Part shown: positions 6,604 to 26,325 of the stretch, piece after piece
Layout of the letters: each line of letters opens with the position of its first letter
Numbering within the stretch: the first letter of the stretch is position 1
Source: a virus
Taxonomy: Duplodnaviria; Heunggongvirae; Uroviricota; Caudoviricetes
Virus record (IMG/VR): IMGVR_UViG_2675903394_000003
DNA: 29,878 nt
Direction: 5' to 3' (one strand)
Made by a program: the position numbers and the translations under genes
Notes under the pieces: generated by a model
Databases searched by the model: none
What the model was told of the DNA's origin: nothing
The model's input: only the letters and a program-made list of their open reading frames with translations

Positions 6604-6703
6604 CCGTTTAACTCCGTGGTTAATGGGTGAGTGGTATTTTCAGTTGTGCCGGAGATGTCAGGCTATTTGTCCCGGTTGGCTAATCGACAGCACAACCACC
6701 GAT

Positions 6704-6729
6704 AAAGAAAAAGCGGACAATAAGCCCGC
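6704..6729 (-). terminator. Probable rho-independent terminator downstream of G
   Basis: Minus strand reads GCGGGC-TTATT-GTCCGC (one mismatch in the stem) followed by TTTTTCTTT, 8 nt after the G stop. Confidence 0.5.
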
Positions 6730-6736
6730 CTTGTGT

Positions 6737-7264
6737 TTATTGCGGCATTTCCGGCCATTCAGGATTTGCAGGATCCACACGACTGACCAGAACGCTGTAG
6801 CGTTCCCATGCTTCCAGTCGGCGGCGCTCCTCATCTGTTGCCATATTCAGCCTGACAGCGCGCTCCAGCGGCAAAATCACGGATTCAGCTTCGGAAAGTA
6901 AAGTTGCCTTTTGTGATTCTGCCAGTTGCTGCTGTTCGTCTGCCGTATAAATCCGCTTAATCACGGCACCATCCTTAAACATCCATTTACCTGAGTCATC
7001 AGCACGTCGGTTGGCGGTAATATCAGGAACCTCGGCAACGCTAAAACCTTCAGGGTTAAGCGTTGAAGCATCTCTGGTGATGCCGACAATTATATTATTC
7101 TCGTCGTAAACAATCTTTATCGTGTCTTCCTGAAAATTACTTACTTCCTCATACCAGTTTTTTCCGTCTTCAGACCATAACCAGATAACATCAAAATTTT
7201 TTGTCAGTTGATATTGGGCAACAGTTTTGGGATTACCCGCAGTAATATTTTTTAAATGCTGCAT
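6737..7264 (-). CDS. G: Tail fiber assembly protein G, 175 aa
   Basis: Position directly downstream of H, length as P2 gpG; N-terminal part is AT-rich. Confidence 0.88.
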
Positions 7265-7267
7265 AAA

Positions 7268-9358
7268 TTACACCTGTGCGACGTTATACCATGTGCCATT
7301 AATGTATTTTTGTATTGGTCTGAATACTGCCGGATCATCGCCATCAACTTCGCCGACAATGCCAAGCCCTGTAATTACATGGCCTGATTTCTCATACATC
7401 ACGCCTTTTTGCATGGTCTGAACAACACGCGTACCCAGGCGAACATCTTTCACATAGCGGGAATCAAAATTTCCGTAATCTGATGGGTTAACACGTCCAG
7501 TAACACTCAGGCCATGCCCCATTGACACTCCGCCATTGGCGTTATTGATAGTCAGCGGTCTTAAACCGTTCCATGTTCCAAATTTATCGCCAGAGGCCGT
7601 CAGCATTAAATATGTGCTGCCGCCATCATTCCTGATAAAGAATCCATAATTGCCATAAGCAATGCGCAGACCATTAGCACTGAGCGATGTAATTTCACCT
7701 CTTGAACGAAGACCATAAGCAGAGCTGAGTGATAATTCTTCCTGAGCATCAGTATTACCTGTCGCCCAGCGAATTACCCCGCCCTGTACTGTTTCATGCC
7801 AGATAGTGTCTCCTTCTCCACCACGAAACTTTCTGAGATATTTTTTGCCGCCTCTGGTGCCGGAACATAAGGCCGTAGACATATAGGCATTCTGGCTTCC
7901 ACTATCCTGATTAATAGTTCCAGACATAGAATCGCCGTAACGGTTCCAGTCACGCCGCCAGCCAGGAGCATAGTTGTCCCCGTGGTTAATATAAGTAAAT
8001 TGCGCGCTTGTAGCGCCCCCACCGCTTGATGTTGTTGGTGTGGTAATACGAATAGTCATTGCAGACTTTATGCCCATTACCTCAATAACAGCGCCAGCAA
8101 GATGAATATTGCCACAGCCAGTATCGGTAATAAGTTTATTATTGGCATATGACCAGGAGCCTTTACACATCCAGTATGGGTGATTAAAAGCACCTACCGA
8201 ATCAAGCCACTCAATAAACTGGGCTGTAGTCCAGTCTCCACCTTCGGTGCTCAAAGCGCCGCTATAAGCACGACAGGCACCAATATTTTTCGTGAAAGTA
8301 TCCTTTCCCGGAATATCCGCACCGTTCTTATCTTTCTGAAGACGTTTTTCAGCATTATCATAGGCAGACTTCACCGCTTTTGGCGTTGCAGCCAGCGTTT
8401 CAGAATCGCTGTTGATGGCACTACTGAGCTGAACAAGACCTTTCCGCGCCGTGGTGGCATCCTGTGCAGTGTATTTCCCGTTAGCAAGGTCATACGCTGT
8501 CTTAACCGCCTTTGGCGTTGCCGCAAGCGTTTCAGAATCGCTGTTGGTGGCGCTACTGAGCTGGACAAGGCCTTTTCGCGCTGTGGTGGCGTCCTGTGCG
8601 GTATATTTCCCGTTAGCCAGGTCATATGCTGCTTTTACCGCTTTTGGCGTTGCGGCGAGCGTTTCAGACGTGCTGTTGGTGGCACTACTGAGCTGGACAA
8701 GGCCTTTTCGCGCTGTGGTGGCGTCCTGTGCGGTATATTTCCCGTTAGCCAGGTCATACGCGGCCTTTACCGCTTTCGGCGTTGCGGCCAGTGTTTCAGA
8801 CGTACTGTTGGTCGCACTGCTTAACTGAGTAAAACCTTTTTCGGTCAGCGAGGCGTCCGGGTGACGTCGTGACTGTTCGTGCTCTGCAATTTTGTCATCA
8901 ACGTAATCCTGCGTCGCCATCACCGTTGTGGTGTCAATGGTCAGCGCCACTGAGGCCACACTGCTGACGATGATGACCATGCGGCAGGTCTGCGAACGCC
9001 CTGAGCCTTCGGCAAGGGCAGGCTTATAACTTTCGGCCATGTTCGCCACGGCAATTAACGTTCCCGCATCATCGTACAGGCCAAGCTCACGCATCCAGAA
9101 ACCGCCCACCTCCGGCGGAATAACCAGCTCTGCGATAATATAATTACTGTTTCGTTTGTCCTGGCTGATTTTGTTCAGCGCATGTCGCCAGACTTCATGG
9201 ATAAGCCCGGTCTGTCCGGCATCCGGGACAGGCAATTTACCACCGCCATCCCCGACGGCCATCGTGGTAATATTGACCTTCCGCCCTCCCGGCGCGGTTG
9301 CCGCTGCCAGCTTTGCTGCACCGGCAGTGGTGATAACGGTTTTGAATTTTGTGCTCAT
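7268..9358 (-). CDS. H: Tail fiber protein H, 696 aa, with four tandem ~44-aa repeats and a divergent C-terminal receptor-binding region
   Basis: N-terminus MSTKFKTVITTAGAAKLAAATAPGG... recognised as P2 H; repeats of TAQDATTARKGLVQLSSATNSxSETLAATPKAVKAAYDLANGKY. Confidence 0.92.
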   Translation of the reverse strand: MSTKFKTVITTAGAAKLAAATAPGGRKVNITTMAVGDGGGKLPVPDAGQTGLIHEVWRHALNKISQDKRNSNYIIAELVIPPEVGGFWMRELGLYDDAGTLIAVANMAESYKPALAEGSGRSQTCRMVIIVSSVASVALTIDTTTVMATQDYVDDKIAEHEQSRRHPDASLTEKGFTQLSSATNSTSETLAATPKAVKAAYDLANGKYTAQDATTARKGLVQLSSATNSTSETLAATPKAVKAAYDLANGKYTAQDATTARKGLVQLSSATNSDSETLAATPKAVKTAYDLANGKYTAQDATTARKGLVQLSSAINSDSETLAATPKAVKSAYDNAEKRLQKDKNGADIPGKDTFTKNIGACRAYSGALSTEGGDWTTAQFIEWLDSVGAFNHPYWMCKGSWSYANNKLITDTGCGNIHLAGAVIEVMGIKSAMTIRITTPTTSSGGGATSAQFTYINHGDNYAPGWRRDWNRYGDSMSGTINQDSGSQNAYMSTALCSGTRGGKKYLRKFRGGEGDTIWHETVQGGVIRWATGNTDAQEELSLSSAYGLRSRGEITSLSANGLRIAYGNYGFFIRNDGGSTYLMLTASGDKFGTWNGLRPLTINNANGGVSMGHGLSVTGRVNPSDYGNFDSRYVKDVRLGTRVVQTMQKGVMYEKSGHVITGLGIVGEVDGDDPAVFRPIQKYINGTWYNVAQV
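8377..8830. repeat. About 3.5 tandem copies of a 132-bp repeat inside H
   Basis: Near-identical 132-bp units starting near 8377, 8509, 8641 and 8773; they also generate spurious plus-strand ORFs 8180..8824 and 8451..8828. Confidence 0.85.
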
Positions 9359-9368
9359 TATTCCTCAC

Positions 9369-9899
9369 TTATCCGGGGTAAACCGTAATTACATCGCCGT
9401 CATAAGCCACACCACCGGCGAACAGGTAGCCGGGAATGTCCTGGGTAATGTTCAGACCAATAAGGTGACGGCTTGCGGGTTTGGCATCAGCAATCAGTCG
9501 CTCCATTTCCAGATACATTTCCTCTGTGATGCCGCTTTCCAGTACACCAATATCGAGCCGGAAGGTGCCGGGCGGGTCATTGTTTTCCCACCACTCCGTC
9601 ACATTGATGAGATAGCCGAGCGGCTCCACCACACGCCGGATTGCGCCGATAGTGCCTTTATGACAGTGGATGAAATAGGCATCGCGGATAACGGCGCGTT
9701 TTGTCGCTTCCGGCCACTTTTCATCCCACCTGTCGACCGAAAACGCCCACGCCAGCCACGGCAGCAGATTTGCCGGGCAGGTGTCCGGGTTCCACAGCTC
9801 ACGAATACTGACCGGTGTTTTTTCAATTTCCGCACAGGCTTTTGCGGCGGCAACTTCAAGCGGTGATGAGCCGGTCGGCAGTAGTCGCGAATCACTCAT
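9369..9899 (-). CDS. I: Baseplate protein I, 176 aa
   Basis: Synteny J-I-H, length as P2 gpI. Confidence 0.9.
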   Translation of the reverse strand: MSDSRLLPTGSSPLEVAAAKACAEIEKTPVSIRELWNPDTCPANLLPWLAWAFSVDRWDEKWPEATKRAVIRDAYFIHCHKGTIGAIRRVVEPLGYLINVTEWWENNDPPGTFRLDIGVLESGITEEMYLEMERLIADAKPASRHLIGLNITQDIPGYLFAGGVAYDGDVITVYPG

Positions 9900-21425: not shown

Positions 21426-22361
21426 TTAAAAGTCTTTATCTGCCTGATACTGCCCTGAACAGTAGTAACAACGATACTCAACATCACCATCATCCATTGG
21501 CCAAATGCTCATTTCGCTGCTGGGAGCCTGCGCACCACAACAATCGCAAGCAACATCAATATCATCACTATCTTCATTCTGACAAAAAGTGCATTTGTAA
21601 CCCGTAGAAGACTCATCAGAGGGAATCATTGTGTCGTTAGAACACTCAGGACATTCATAAACTTTCCAATCGACCAATTCATAAAATTTATGCCTAACCC
21701 CATAAAAAGCTTCAGCCTCTCTTTCTTCAACTTCTTTCTTGGCTTCAGAGAGCCGATGAGAGTATTCATCAGCTAAAGTTTGAAATATCTGTAAGTTATC
21801 TGCACCGACTTCATCTTCAAGATTAAAAAGATCGAAGATATCAATAAACTCAGCTACCCCCCGGACGAGGCGTCCAATACACAAGCGCGCGTCTTTAGGA
21901 GTAAGTCTGAATTGATAATGCTCAATATCATTTCTTAAATTCTTTATCCAAGCTATATCATTACAAAAATCAATATCTACAAAATCAACCCCAGTTATGC
22001 CGCATTTCTCACACTTAGCAAAGTTTAGTGCCTGATCTAAGGTTATCGTATATGGCTTAGATTTCCCTTCAATGAACCTTCCTAAATCAACGCCATCCTC
22101 GATAATTTTATTATATGCGTCTAAAAGACTGATTGATTCTTGCTTTGCTCTTGTAGCTATTTGTTTATAGCAATCGGAATACAGTAAATTTTCATCTACT
22201 GTAACAATATATAACTTCAACACCAGCTCAAGAAAATGTGACAAATGCAAGATAGCAAATTTATATTGCCGCAATTCTCCTCTCTGCCCTAACTCATACT
22301 TCGCTAAAGCTTCATTAAAACTATCAATAGCATTCTCTTGTAAATCCAGTTGATATTCCAT
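21426..22361 (-). CDS. Hypothetical cysteine-rich protein (311 aa from the preferred start) with an R-x4-H HEPN-like motif and C-terminal CxxC pairs; candidate defence-associated protein
   Basis: Long ORF in AT-rich cargo; preferred start is the ATG at 22359-22361, preceded by AGGTGA, while the track start at 22406 has no RBS; motif LRNDIEHY at nt 21918-21935; CPEC...CTFC and CDCC...CYYC at nt 21459-21653. Confidence 0.7.
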   Translation of the reverse strand: MEYQLDLQENAIDSFNEALAKYELGQRGELRQYKFAILHLSHFLELVLKLYIVTVDENLLYSDCYKQIATRAKQESISLLDAYNKIIEDGVDLGRFIEGKSKPYTITLDQALNFAKCEKCGITGVDFVDIDFCNDIAWIKNLRNDIEHYQFRLTPKDARLCIGRLVRGVAEFIDIFDLFNLEDEVGADNLQIFQTLADEYSHRLSEAKKEVEEREAEAFYGVRHKFYELVDWKVYECPECSNDTMIPSDESSTGYKCTFCQNEDSDDIDVACDCCGAQAPSSEMSIWPMDDGDVEYRCYYCSGQYQADKDF

Positions 22362-22426
22362 TACATCACCTAAAAAATTCATATTTATATGAGTGCAGAA
22401 AACCATTCAGCACTCATTGCTTATAA

Positions 22427-23158
22427 TCAATTATCTAATATTGATACAACCTCTCCCGTTCGTATGTCGACGCGCGCAGCTATAGTCTGCTTAACCACTC
22501 CACCATAAGCATTAGTACCGCGAAACGTAGTTTTCACAATAGCGTACGGGTCTTTATTCAAAACCAAATGATATACCGTTGACACATGTTTATAAGATGA
22601 ATCATCGTTCATATTATCTTTAATTAGTTTTTCCAATGGACGATAAGAACCATCCCAACCACTAAAATTACTCTGAAATGTATCAAGATTGATTTTATTG
22701 TTTAGTGAATTCGGGTCATTTTCATAATCATTAAAGCACCACCCAAGAACATCACCGAGTTTCAACTCATCATCTTTGGTAAATGTATACTCACTCATGC
22801 AGGCATAAAACGCATCTGACGCGGTGGCTGGAACTTCCTTAAAATCAATGTAACTATTCACAATATCGTGTCGTGTTTTCTTTGACTCGTTCCGATATTC
22901 CTTGAGTGTTTTTTCACCATATTCGAATGTTTTTTGGACTTTGTGTTCTGCAACGGTTGATGTTTCAGTTTTAGCAACTGGCTGGCTTTTTTCTGTTGGA
23001 TAGAGTATTGAACCAATTATGCTCAATACAAAACCTCCTCCGAGATAAACCGCACTTGCACGTTTGCGGTTTGGCATTCGCACCAGTGATGGCTTGATTA
23101 ACCCGATGAAGAAAGCAACGAAAAAAGCGAGTGATAGAAAAGCGATTATAGTATCCAT
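22427..23158 (-). CDS. Hypothetical membrane protein (243 aa from the preferred start) with two N-terminal TM helices and a ~180-aa C-terminal domain
   Basis: Hydrophobic segments IIAFLSLAFFVAFFIGLI and AVYLGGGFVLSIIGSILY separated by the basic loop KPSLVRMPNRKRAS; preferred start is the ATG at 23156-23158, preceded by AAGGA; AT-rich. Confidence 0.7.
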   Translation of the reverse strand: MDTIIAFLSLAFFVAFFIGLIKPSLVRMPNRKRASAVYLGGGFVLSIIGSILYPTEKSQPVAKTETSTVAEHKVQKTFEYGEKTLKEYRNESKKTRHDIVNSYIDFKEVPATASDAFYACMSEYTFTKDDELKLGDVLGWCFNDYENDPNSLNNKINLDTFQSNFSGWDGSYRPLEKLIKDNMNDDSSYKHVSTVYHLVLNKDPYAIVKTTFRGTNAYGGVVKQTIAARVDIRTGEVVSILDN

Positions 23159-23381
23159 AGCTATCCTTTTTGCATCATCCACATAAAAAATCGACCTCAT
23201 GTTAGCAACAGGATGCTTACTTTTGAATATTTGTAAGTTGTTGGCTCTCCAACCTAACTCCTTTCAACCGTCAAAAACCGGCACCAACGCAGTAAAAATA
23301 TGTCTGTCAACTAACGCCTCGCTTCGCTCGTTGTTCAACCCCGCCAGCCCTGAAAACAAGTTTCACGACTGGCGGCGTTCT

Positions 23382-23588
23382 CTATCGTCTGCGTGGTGGT
23401 GGCGTAACTCTTGATTGACCGATATGATTAAACCGCCCGTAATTATCCCGGACTATTTCGGCACACCCGACCAGCTCATCGGGCGTCATATTTTCGTTGA
23501 CCATAATCCGCTGTAAACGCTGAACAATAGCCATCAGCTTGATATTTTTAGTTTTATGGTGCGGTATCTCGCCTGGTATTCTGTGCAT
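23382..23588 (-). CDS. Hypothetical small protein (68 aa)
   Basis: ATG at 23586-23588 overlaps the upstream stop as TAATG (translational coupling); the track ORF start at 23600 is a GTG. Confidence 0.45.
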   Translation of the reverse strand: MHRIPGEIPHHKTKNIKLMAIVQRLQRIMVNENMTPDELVGCAEIVRDNYGRFNHIGQSRVTPPPRRR

Positions 23589-24043
23589 TATCCAAGCCAC
23601 CCGTTTTGCTGTGCACGCTCCATCTGTTCATCTGAATAGTTCCATGCTCCATCCGTGGCAACCATTGCCCCGCCAGACATCCCCGTCTCTGGTTCATACA
23701 TAACAGCAAGGCCGAGCTGATGCATAATTTCATGATTAATTCTGAATACCAGACCACGCTCACTAAGTTCTTTCCAGTTCACAATCTCATATGCGCCTGT
23801 ATTAAGCAGCTCAATACTTAGCAAGACATAATCTTCCAGCCAGTCTGACAGGTCAGTAACATCTGTTATCCGGGCTTCAACCTTTCGCCCCGTATACACA
23901 CCCTGCACCCATTCATGCAAAATCAACGTGTCCCCGTGCTCATAATTACGGTCATTTTTCCGAAACTCTGCGCGTTTCTTTCCTTCCAGCACAAGGTCGA
24001 AATATTTTGCGTGCAGCTTTACCTCGTGAATTTTTGCCATCAT
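23588..24043 (-). CDS. ASCH/DUF3850-like (PUA-fold) protein, about 151 aa
   Basis: N-terminal MAKIHEVKLHAKYFDLVLEGKKRAEFRKNDRNYEHGDTLILHEW resembles the DUF3850/ASCH signature as I remember it; ATG at 24041-24043 overlaps the A stop and is preceded by GGAG. Confidence 0.6.
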   Translation of the reverse strand: MMAKIHEVKLHAKYFDLVLEGKKRAEFRKNDRNYEHGDTLILHEWVQGVYTGRKVEARITDVTDLSDWLEDYVLLSIELLNTGAYEIVNWKELSERGLVFRINHEIMHQLGLAVMYEPETGMSGGAMVATDGAWNYSDEQMERAQQNGWLG

Positions 24044-26325
24044 CTCCACTCCATTACTGTTGAGAATCCCGGCCACTCATCAGCGACCGGATACGTGAAT
24101 TTTTTCCCGTCATAATTTACAGTCGCGCCACGCGCCAGCGCCTCAAGCTCCCATCGCTGCGGCCTGATACCGTTCTGAGCAAGGTCAACGCGGATACGGG
24201 TAATTTGCATTCGTTCCGACCGGGTCAGTCTGGCCGATGGCGCTATTTCATGCGGTTTTAACGGGCTTCCGGCTCTTTGCTGACGATTTGGTGTTCTCAG
24301 GCCGTGTTTTAATGCGCCCCTGAGCGCCCTCACGACCTCCGGGTCATTCCATTCGATAACACCGTCATCAACCAGATTAAGCACTGCTGCGGCGTGTTCA
24401 GAAGGTGTGGGAGCCGGTAACGAAGCATCACTGCTGGCAGGCTTTCCACAGTTATTGACAGGACTCCGAGGCGCGGCGATGCCGCTTTTTAAAGTCAAAG
24501 GCTCCACGACCGGAACTTTCGGCACAATGCGCCAGTCCGTCGTTCTGGTGATATGAATATGACGCGCGCCGAGATGCGGCGCGTAAATGCCGACCACTCT
24601 CTCGACCTCTTCCTCGTACTCGTTAACGTCATCCGACGGGCTACGGGCGACCCTGACAGTCTGACAATCGCGCGGGACATTTGCCCCACCCTGCGCGCTG
24701 ATATACAACGCAAAATCACCACTGTCTGCGGCGGCGCGTGCAGCCTCGACGCGCTCGTCAAACTCATCAGCAATGCTGACGCCGCGCGGCAATTTGCGTA
24801 GTTCACGGTAAGCCCCCATTGTCGGCAGACCAACCGTTTTAAATTGCGGGATGCGCCACGTTGACGCCCATGCAGTAACAGCCGCGGCAGTATCTTTCAG
24901 CGGTCTGCCGGTATCGTTATCGAGCTGACCATCCAGTGCATAGCCGTCGATGTTTTTTGAGATGTATTTCGCGATATACCCCGCAGCACCACCCCGATTA
25001 AGGTGTTTTGCCTGAAAACGGTTTCGCGCGGCTCCTCTTTCGTCGCCATCCTCTTTGAGCGCATAGCGACGCATGATTTCGATAATCTGGTTACGCTGGC
25101 GTGGATTACAAAAAAGCATCATATGCCAGTGCGGCGTTCCGTCGTGGTGTGGCTCGACGACTCGCAAACCGTAGACCTGTAAATCATTATCCTTGAATGC
25201 CGTGCGCATCAGGCTCCAGATACGGCAGAGATATCGCTGCGCATCCTTTGGATTAAATGCCTCATCATTCCAGCCGTGATTAAGCTGGACGGTTTTACTT
25301 TCGCCTTTTCCGACCTGACGTGTCGGGTGATACTTTGACGGTGCGGTCAGCGTGATAAACATCCCCACATCACCCTCTGCGGCGGCGTAACGCTCAATAC
25401 CGGCGATGGTGTTCATCAGCTCCATCCGGCGAATTTCAGGATTAGAAATACTGCCCATCACCTTACTGATAAGGTCGATGCGCTCGCCGGTTTCCCTGTT
25501 TTCAAGGTCACACGATTTAAGAAATTCCAGATTTGCCTGGCGGCGTGCACGCACATCCCGAATGGCATGTTTACTGGCATAAGGAGAACGGTCTTTATTG
25601 ACCTCCCCGACAGCTATCAGTAACGCCTCATGCCAGCGCATACGCTGGCCTTTAAGCTGATGAGTCCACCACTCATCGTTAAACAGGCGGGCAATGGCAG
25701 AATATGCCTGCCTCGTGGTCATCTGTCCTTTACGGTATTTTTTCCAGTAGAGAGGGGAAATATTGAAAGCACGTGCAGCGCCAGCAACATGACCATAGAG
25801 GTGAGCCTGCGCCTCATCCGTAAACAGCGATTCTTTCTCGCCATGCGCATCCACCCAGGCATCGCAGAGTTCCTCATACATCATGAAAAGCTGCGATGAA
25901 ATACGGGCGGCAAACTTTTTCAGCTCCTTGTCATTCATTCCAGGCAGGCGCGCATAGTGGTCGCGCTCTGCCAGAAACAGCAACGACGCGTCGGTGTTCA
26001 TTTCATGGCGCTGATTCACGCGCTCAATGCGCGGCCATAAACGACGCTGAAAAGTGGATGTGAGGAAATAAAACCCGTGCACCGGGCTTTTATTGCGCCG
26101 GATGTAGTCATAGCGTGAAGTAAACAGCGAGCGCAAAAAGTAAGGCAGGCGGTTAATCGTGGATAAAACACCTTGCACCTGACGCATCTCGTCACGTGTA
26201 AGGGGTCTTTCGCGCCCGACAGCCTCGCGTGGCGCGTTCCATGCATAAGCACCGGTAAACATCTTACCGGTGCCTGCGGCAAATGCTGACGGAGGGACAA
26301 AACGCCCGGAGGCTTTAACGGCCAT
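24040..26325 (-). CDS. A: Replication initiation protein A (rolling-circle nickase), 761 aa
   Basis: Start at MAVKASGRFVPP (ATG 26323-26325) gives the P2 gpA length; the track start at 26367 is a TTG. Confidence 0.92.
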   Translation of the reverse strand: MAVKASGRFVPPSAFAAGTGKMFTGAYAWNAPREAVGRERPLTRDEMRQVQGVLSTINRLPYFLRSLFTSRYDYIRRNKSPVHGFYFLTSTFQRRLWPRIERVNQRHEMNTDASLLFLAERDHYARLPGMNDKELKKFAARISSQLFMMYEELCDAWVDAHGEKESLFTDEAQAHLYGHVAGAARAFNISPLYWKKYRKGQMTTRQAYSAIARLFNDEWWTHQLKGQRMRWHEALLIAVGEVNKDRSPYASKHAIRDVRARRQANLEFLKSCDLENRETGERIDLISKVMGSISNPEIRRMELMNTIAGIERYAAAEGDVGMFITLTAPSKYHPTRQVGKGESKTVQLNHGWNDEAFNPKDAQRYLCRIWSLMRTAFKDNDLQVYGLRVVEPHHDGTPHWHMMLFCNPRQRNQIIEIMRRYALKEDGDERGAARNRFQAKHLNRGGAAGYIAKYISKNIDGYALDGQLDNDTGRPLKDTAAAVTAWASTWRIPQFKTVGLPTMGAYRELRKLPRGVSIADEFDERVEAARAAADSGDFALYISAQGGANVPRDCQTVRVARSPSDDVNEYEEEVERVVGIYAPHLGARHIHITRTTDWRIVPKVPVVEPLTLKSGIAAPRSPVNNCGKPASSDASLPAPTPSEHAAAVLNLVDDGVIEWNDPEVVRALRGALKHGLRTPNRQQRAGSPLKPHEIAPSARLTRSERMQITRIRVDLAQNGIRPQRWELEALARGATVNYDGKKFTYPVADEWPGFSTVMEWR

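Follow-up and report, generated by a model that had tools for sequence, protein, structure and literature searches.

A tandem repeat encoding four 44-residue PF03406 modules in tail fibre gene H of a P2-like prophage

The window, i.e. the whole stretch of 29,878 nucleotides analysed here (IMG/VR virus record IMGVR_UViG_2675903394_000003), contains the gene order W-J-I-H-G (GPW_gp25, Baseplate_J, Tail_P2_I, H and Caudo_TAP) and, besides, the tail sheath, gpD, terminase, portal, gpA and integrase. Gene H, its first domain and its immediate neighbours are located as follows.

6737-7264, minus strand: tail-fibre assembly gene, homologue of G, downstream of H (PF02413 Caudo_TAP, 118 bits)
7268-9358, minus strand: tail-fibre gene H, 696 aa (open reading frame; PF12571, four PF03406 stretches, PF21446)
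8864-9358, minus strand: N-terminal baseplate-attachment domain, aa 1-165 (PF12571 over aa 1-151; 97% nucleotide identity to P2 H)
9369-9899, minus strand: homologue of tail protein I, adjoining H on its upstream side (PF09684 Tail_P2_I, 187 bits)

The match of H aa 1-151 to Pfam PF12571 (Phage_tail_fib, the tail-collar fibre N-terminal domain) scores 197 bits and, together with the P2-like gene neighbourhood, identifies the window as a P2-like prophage and the open reading frame as its gene H. By this domain and by its place in the W-J-I-H-G order, the reading frame that bears the repeat array is a P2 gpH-type tail fibre, so that the name tail fibre H given in an earlier sequence-only reading is borne out by PF12571, by tail protein I upstream, by Caudo_TAP downstream and by baseplate J and W beyond. 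As a gpH homologue the protein would be a fibre trimer bound to the baseplate, and its assembly would require gpG. An E. coli gene annotated as 'tail fiber protein' shows 97% nucleotide identity to this H. BLASTP matches at 100% (rounded) are proteins of Escherichia albertii and E. coli (P0125-P0127), and one protein at 99% identity occurs on 476 contigs.

Tandem Repeats Finder, run on the whole window, returned a single strong array with a score of 684, containing 3.5 copies with 89% matches and 0% indels; all other tandem arrays in the window score 37 or less. Read in frame on the minus strand, it corresponds to four 44-aa units spanning aa 166-341 (nt 8336-8863). The longest exact direct repeat in the window, 74 bp at a spacing of 132 bp, lies inside this array.

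8732-8863, minus strand: repeat unit 1, aa 166-209 (PF03406 and in-frame alignment; first third without repetition)
8600-8731, minus strand: repeat unit 2, aa 210-253 (homology to P2 stops within it, at about nt 8634)
8468-8599, minus strand: repeat unit 3, aa 254-297 (in-frame alignment)
8336-8467, minus strand: repeat unit 4, aa 298-341 (Mu-type terminal unit, …KAVKSAYDNAEKRLQ)
8358-8818, no strand: repeat as delimited in the DNA (3.5 copies of period 132)
8685-8758, no strand: 74-bp perfect direct repeat, copy A (unit 1/2 boundary)
8553-8626, no strand: 74-bp perfect direct repeat, copy B (junction of units 2 and 3; offset from copy A by 132 bp)

Pfam PF03406 (Phage_fiber_2) matches four stretches of H, with 267.8 bits against a gathering cut-off of 22, the best stretch being aa 170-210 (profile positions 1-41 of 42). 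The array thus belongs to this family, with a score above gathering and serial copies in a tail-fibre protein. Tandem Repeats Finder, the reading frame and the four PF03406 stretches agree on what had been proposed from the letters, a 132-bp tandem repeat encoding four 44-aa repeats in H; the consensus peptide quoted for it was correct, and the interval assigned to it, 8377-8830, falls inside the in-frame array and spans the stretch whose nucleotides are repeated (aa 177-328). The description of the copies as near-identical in nucleotide sequence holds for the protein, units 2 and 3 sharing 95% of their residues, but not for the DNA: whole-unit identity is 89% for units 2/3, 78% for 1/2, 77% for 3/4, 75% for 2/4, 71% for 1/3 and 62% for 1/4. 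Between any two units, 14-50 of the 132 positions differ, mostly synonymously. Unit 1 departs from the others in its first third and unit 4 in its last quarter, and because these two parts are unrelated to the remaining copies the DNA-level repeat comprises 3.5 copies and not 4.

P2 gpH (NP_046775), encoded at the same gene position (W-J-I-H-G), has 669 aa and two units, against 696 aa and four units in the window. The two genes share 97% nucleotide identity over gene nt 1-725, that is, the N-terminal 165 aa and about 1.7 units. The homology ends at nt 725, within unit 2 and just past its ATPKAVK core, and beyond this point no relationship is left up to the final ~220 nt, where the identity is 77% and the C-terminal ~70 aa of both proteins are again related. 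The terminal unit ends in …KAVKTVMDETNKKAP in P2 H and in …KAVKSAYDNAEKRLQ in window H, and the distal part that follows is 416 aa long in the former and 355 aa in the latter. The excess of 27 aa over the 669 aa of P2 H was therefore right as a length, although repeat number by itself does not account for it: 88 aa are gained with the two extra units and 61 aa lost with the shorter, different distal part. With the end of P2 homology lying within unit 2, the repeat acts as a mosaic joint as well. The distal part can be divided as follows.

7907-8359, minus strand: distal segment, aa 334-484, a close homologue of the variable part of S', the G(-) fibre of phage Mu (238.6 bits by phmmer to residues 177-329 of the solved domain, PDB 8ju3_A)
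7547-7741, minus strand: Gp34_trimer-like segment, aa 540-604 (PF21446, 83 bits; matches Mu S, 5yvq, and T4 gp34)
7268-7480, minus strand: C-terminal end common to P2 H and Mu S, aa 627-696 (76.7% nucleotide identity to the 3' end of P2 H)

A search of the PDB extends the match to the Mu S and T4 gp34 structures over H aa 519-623. The distal part of window H is thus a mosaic, in part Mu S'-like.

Copy number was compared among relatives in three samples: 80 IMG/VR loci with an H N-terminal domain at least 97% identical, 120 full-length database proteins, and seven annotated phage or E. coli loci; units were counted by means of an HMM derived from the four copies in the window. Across the 200 full-length H proteins that share the N-terminal domain, units are spaced by exactly 44 aa in 590 of 590 cases and their number ranges from 1 to 6 with a mode of 4, the databases being a source in which many sequences are short-read assemblies, able to miscount perfect repeats. 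The comparison of related prophages suggested in the sequence-only reading thus does find variation, between 1 and 6 units and always by whole steps of 44 aa. The 74 complete IMG/VR H genes, chosen solely by their N-terminal domain, have one unit in 1 case, two in 18, three in 1, four in 41 and five in 13; four units are therefore the usual state of coliphage H and the two of P2 a minority. In other genera of the Enterobacteriaceae, the readable H proteins of 28 species contain 1-4 units; the first unit begins at aa 165-166 in all but one of them, in which it begins at aa 193. Terminal units are of two types: the P2 type (…KAVKTVMDETNKKAP) closes arrays of 1-2 units, whereas arrays of 3-6 have the Mu type (…KAVKSAYDNAEKRLQKDxNGADIP). 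Searches with the N-terminal 229 aa returned mostly 'partial' proteins that stop in or just past the array. A loose pattern was also seen between copy number and distal length, in the sense of compensation towards a constant total length, among classes that are not phylogenetically independent.

Gain and loss can be followed among 73 proteins with at least 85% identity to the window distal domain: four units are present in 66 of them, three units in three, five in another three and six in a single one. Full-length members form a ladder of 652, 696, 740/743 and 784 aa for 3, 4, 5 and 6 units; two four-unit entries lie off it, with 683 and 697 aa as listed. The repeat is hence polymorphic in copy number by whole units (alleles of 652, 696, 740 and 784 aa; three units in E. 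coli ES5 against four in S10). Complete genomes contain 3-, 4- and 5-unit alleles, the last one in H78 (record span of 1134 for a query span of 1001). The order of units in the variants of this class is 1-3-4, 1-2-(3/4 hybrid), 1-(2/3 hybrid)-4, 1-2-3-2-4 or 1-2-3-3-3-4, and these differences imply several independent in-register gain or loss events. We infer that such orders bear the signature of unequal exchange between units. In some arrays (L022, L041) neighbouring units are 99-100% identical, which indicates recent duplication. RecA-dependent exchange in E. coli needs ~25-30 bp, and the 74-bp tract of the window is well above this length; a crossover within it would yield exactly the observed 1-3-4 allele. 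Chi sites, as recombination hot spots, are absent from the window.

The units of the window find their best matches in units at the same position of other phages, unit 3 being 100% identical to unit 3 of another IMG/VR locus (L011). Comparison of 36 distinct four-unit arrays gave an identity of 0.915-0.948 between units at the same position, and the identity between units 2 and 3 was 0.89 within arrays and likewise 0.89 between arrays; concerted evolution or homogenisation of units was thus not found in these 36 arrays. The pN/pS ratio of orthologous units is 0.04-0.07, and paralogous units of the window differ at 31-69% of synonymous and 3-14% of non-synonymous sites. Synonymous diversity amounts to 0.17-0.28 in the array against 0.065 in the neighbouring N-terminal domain, a 3- to 4-fold difference. 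Because the units are positional orthologues, show no homogenisation and have so low a pN/pS, the array is old and stable, its peptide strongly constrained and its duplications ancient. The idea that four copies are a recent or unusual expansion was rejected, as four is the mode and the units are closest to same-position units elsewhere. Two plus-strand reading frames, 8180-8824 and 8451-8828, were likewise rejected as genes and regarded as antisense read-through of the stop-free repeat, since the pN/pS ratio also suits the minus-strand frame.

Taken as a whole, the reading that we favour, with a probability of roughly 0.8, is that the array consists of PF03406 shaft modules, gained and lost in register, in an old and common four-unit allele that also serves as a mosaic joint. 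Four consecutive 44-residue modules follow directly on the baseplate-attachment domain of a gpH-type fibre, which would be trimeric. From their position and modularity, they may build the proximal part of the shaft as a stack of identical blocks, and their number would then set the distance between the baseplate and the receptor-binding distal part. As the units are 132 bp long and in frame, and still have exact tracts of up to 74 bp in common, whole modules could occasionally be added or removed in register, through replication slippage or unequal recombination, giving alleles of 1-6 units. The window allele is the common four-unit form, inherited unit by unit under strong purifying selection, and the highly conserved unit DNA provides one joining point between the conserved 5' half of H and varied receptor-binding 3' halves.

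Searches of the PDB by sequence and by profile, with the array and with the unit profile, found the module solely in the deposited sequences of Mu S/S', in one copy; no relation to the alpha/beta repeats of T4 gp34 was detectable, the other PDB matches (E > 0.7) being noise. An AlphaFold2 single-sequence model of aa 140-475 has a mean pLDDT of 38. No published structure of a PF03406 module was found in the literature or the PDB. In the Mu cryo-EM paper the fibre is modelled at its N terminus only (PMC11915804), and the module, termed Pf2, is described as little known (PMC3368898) and gave conflicting models (PMC8078820).

Other explanations have been considered both for the variation in copy number and for the array itself. 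The locus could be a hypervariable contingency locus, in which frequent switching of copy number would maintain mixed fibre lengths in the lysogen or phage population; this takes the length change by unequal recombination raised in the sequence-only reading to its stronger form. The 74-bp perfect direct repeat, the 3-6-unit alleles with an equal distal domain and the few arrays with 99-100% identical neighbouring units are what such a locus would contain. Nevertheless, four units dominate (66 of 73 in the distal class, 41 of 74 in IMG/VR), the units are positional orthologues without homogenisation, paralogous units have accumulated synonymous differences at 31-69% of sites, and proteins listed at 99-100% identity turn up in numerous independent assemblies, among them the protein on 476 contigs mentioned above. 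These four observations point to rare events and not to frequent switching, which makes a contingency locus improbable: changes in copy number are rare departures from the four-unit norm. That the repeat, or its copy number, is an artefact of assembly is barely credible. Many database H proteins are 'partial' and end in or just past the array, where assemblers evidently have trouble; yet the window units differ at enough positions (14-50 of 132) for unambiguous assembly, and the 696-aa architecture is present in complete chromosomes and in proteins listed as 100% identical from independent assemblies.

The array might also be viewed mainly as DNA, that is, as a linker for homologous recombination by which 3' halves of P2-like, Mu-like and lambdoid type are swapped, copy number being a by-product. 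The end of P2/window homology in unit 2, just past the ATPKAVK motif, the association of P2-type terminal units with 1-2 copies and of Mu-type ones with 3-6, the 82-86% nucleotide identity of the repeat DNA to lambdoid stf genes, and the raised synonymous diversity of the array (0.17-0.28 against 0.065 in the N-terminal domain) all argue for exchange at this place. A role as recombination joint between fibre halves has long been associated with P2 H. A similar linker role was proposed in a tail-fibre atlas preprint for another mobile, copy-variable fibre domain (10.1101/2024.10.28.620165). Against this as the main role, a pN/pS of 0.04-0.07 and the invariant 44-aa spacing imply that the protein module itself is constrained, and not DNA alone, and a second mosaic joint lies outside the repeat, past KDxNGADIP. 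The linker as main role is possible, with the odds somewhat against it, and it complements the favoured explanation and does not exclude it. Finally, the very high conservation of the unit across unrelated fibres would suit ligand-binding modules, for a surface polysaccharide or an assembly chaperone, as opposed to structural spacers. This is very improbable, however, given that the units adjoin the baseplate-attachment domain, far from the C-terminal end that binds receptor or chaperone; it is this end that matches the crystal structures of Mu S/S', reported with the Mu fibre assembly protein, and the unit is combined with many different distal domains.

The unit number might in addition act as an adaptive 'ruler', matched either to the receptor-binding domain at the distal end or to how deep the surface layers of the host are (LPS O-antigen, capsule). 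Behind this idea stands the finding that P2-type distal parts have 1-2 units and Mu-type ones 3-6; as an explanation it is rather doubtful. Were it true, gain and loss in register would let a prophage lineage re-tune the reach of its fibre quickly. The feature itself is already known, being a curated Pfam domain repeat in its commonest allele, with 99-100% identical proteins public many times, and its discovery value is small. Its practical use lies in the annotation of prophage tail fibres and in the choice of fusion points for engineering P2-type fibres or tailocins, where it matters that the repeat is both a junction of mosaic exchange and a site at which short-read contigs break.

The module is widespread. 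A search of 1.84 billion representatives with the unit profile (E <= 1e-3) found it in 5353 protein clusters at the 50% identity level, individual proteins containing as many as 22 stretches, and 3079 of 5426 complete E. coli genomes contain a match to the repeat DNA. Most of the 5' 1100 nt of H is present in 377 complete E. coli genomes. P2 H is a textbook carrier of the PF03406 module. Four close counterparts of window H have the same N-terminal domain, unit types and Mu-type junction: H of E. coli S10 has four units and the same distal domain (97% nucleotide identity); that of E. coli ES5, a complete-level chromosome assembly, has the window-type distal domain after three units; that of the peduovirus P37 (Yersinia/Escherichia) has three units and a longer distal part, reaching 720 aa; and that of the peduovirus vB_YpM_46, also with a longer distal part, reaches 764 aa.

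Mu tail fibres S and S' are represented by PDB 5YVQ, 8JU3 and 9KI1. In Mu S the module is present once (residues 111-151), aligns with unit 4 of the window and is followed by a KDxNGADIP segment as in window H; the C-terminal ends of Mu S and of window H are also related. Unlike window H, Mu attaches its fibre by another N-terminal domain and has just the one unit, and it swaps its distal parts through inversion of the G segment, whereas no invertible segment is evident in the window.

Lambdoid Stf-type fibres have in common with window H the PF03406 module of ~42-44 aa, which occurs in variable number in many tail fibres, and the repeat DNA retains its 82-86% nucleotide identity also to stfR of K-12. 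The family corresponds to the 'Pf2' domain of lambda Stf, StfR and the collagen-like fibres of EHEC prophages (PMC3368898). In lambdoid fibres the module comes after a different N-terminal domain and often forms an alternating super-repeat of 42 and 58 aa with up to 11-12 copies (P0241, P0242), whereas in the window it follows the PF12571 domain with a strict period of 44 aa.

Synonymous diversity differs sharply between the two adjacent parts of the tail-fibre gene H that were compared in the same 36 phages, which carry distinct four-unit arrays. In the region 8336-9358, pS is 0.17-0.28 in the repeat units and 0.065 in the adjacent N-terminal domain, that is, three to four times higher in the units, a pattern that fits the import or exchange of repeat segments. 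The repeat DNA is itself widespread: positions 8510-8843 (gene nucleotides 516-849) share 82-86% nucleotide identity with lambdoid side-tail-fibre genes, among them those annotated 'prophage tail fiber N-terminal domain-containing protein' and stfR of the K-12 Rac prophage, and matches occur in 3079 of 5426 complete E. coli genomes.

The array (8336-8863), or the point just past it, is often a contig break, probably because the repeat is common to several prophages in each genome, with a median of two places per genome. Among the best 120 database matches to the N-terminal 229 amino acids of H, 'partial' proteins are the majority, and 34 end within 15 amino acids of the last detected repeat unit. 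Unit counts taken from short-read assemblies should be treated with caution. Two open reading frames cross the repeat on the opposite strand:

8180-8824, plus strand, antisense ORF of 214 aa
8451-8828, plus strand, antisense ORF of 125 aa

Their standing as genes is unsupported, and they are regarded as repetitive stop-free read-through.

Elsewhere in the prophage, the gap between the fibre-assembly and tail-sheath genes is only 133 nt (6604-6736); P2 carries the cargo gene fun(Z) at this site, whereas here the site is empty. The stretch from the portal gene to the gpA side of the prophage contains two cargo ORFs (21426-23200, minus strand), and a further ORF adjoins the gpA replication gene:

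21426-22406, minus strand, cargo ORF of 326 aa, with a weak PADLOC match (E 2e-17, N-terminal 85 aa only) to the candidate defence family PDC-S64, no Pfam match and nothing closely similar in the phage collection
22427-23200, minus strand, cargo ORF of 257 aa, with 97% DNA identity to 'Orf97' of Peduovirus P22H4 and no match in the family search
23588-24076, minus strand, ORF of 162 aa with ASCH/DUF3850 and DUF7415 domains

Immediately beyond the fourth unit, H continues with a short segment:

8270-8335 (aa 342-363), post-repeat segment KDKNGADIPGKDTFTKNIG

The distal classes of H begin to diverge immediately past the motif NGADIP, and a second mosaic joint is therefore placed there, outside the repeat. 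The segment can be aligned with KDRNGADIPNKPLFIQNLG of the phage Mu fibre S, which comes after the single repeat unit of that protein, and also with NGADIPGKDTFTKNIG, the beginning of the stretch with a match to Mu S'. Two lambdoid-type fibres from outside the window (P0241 and P0242) contain 11-12 near-canonical copies of the H unit, in a 42/58-aa alternation that makes up a 100-aa super-repeat, and one of them ends in a P2-type terminal unit with P2-like distal sequence.
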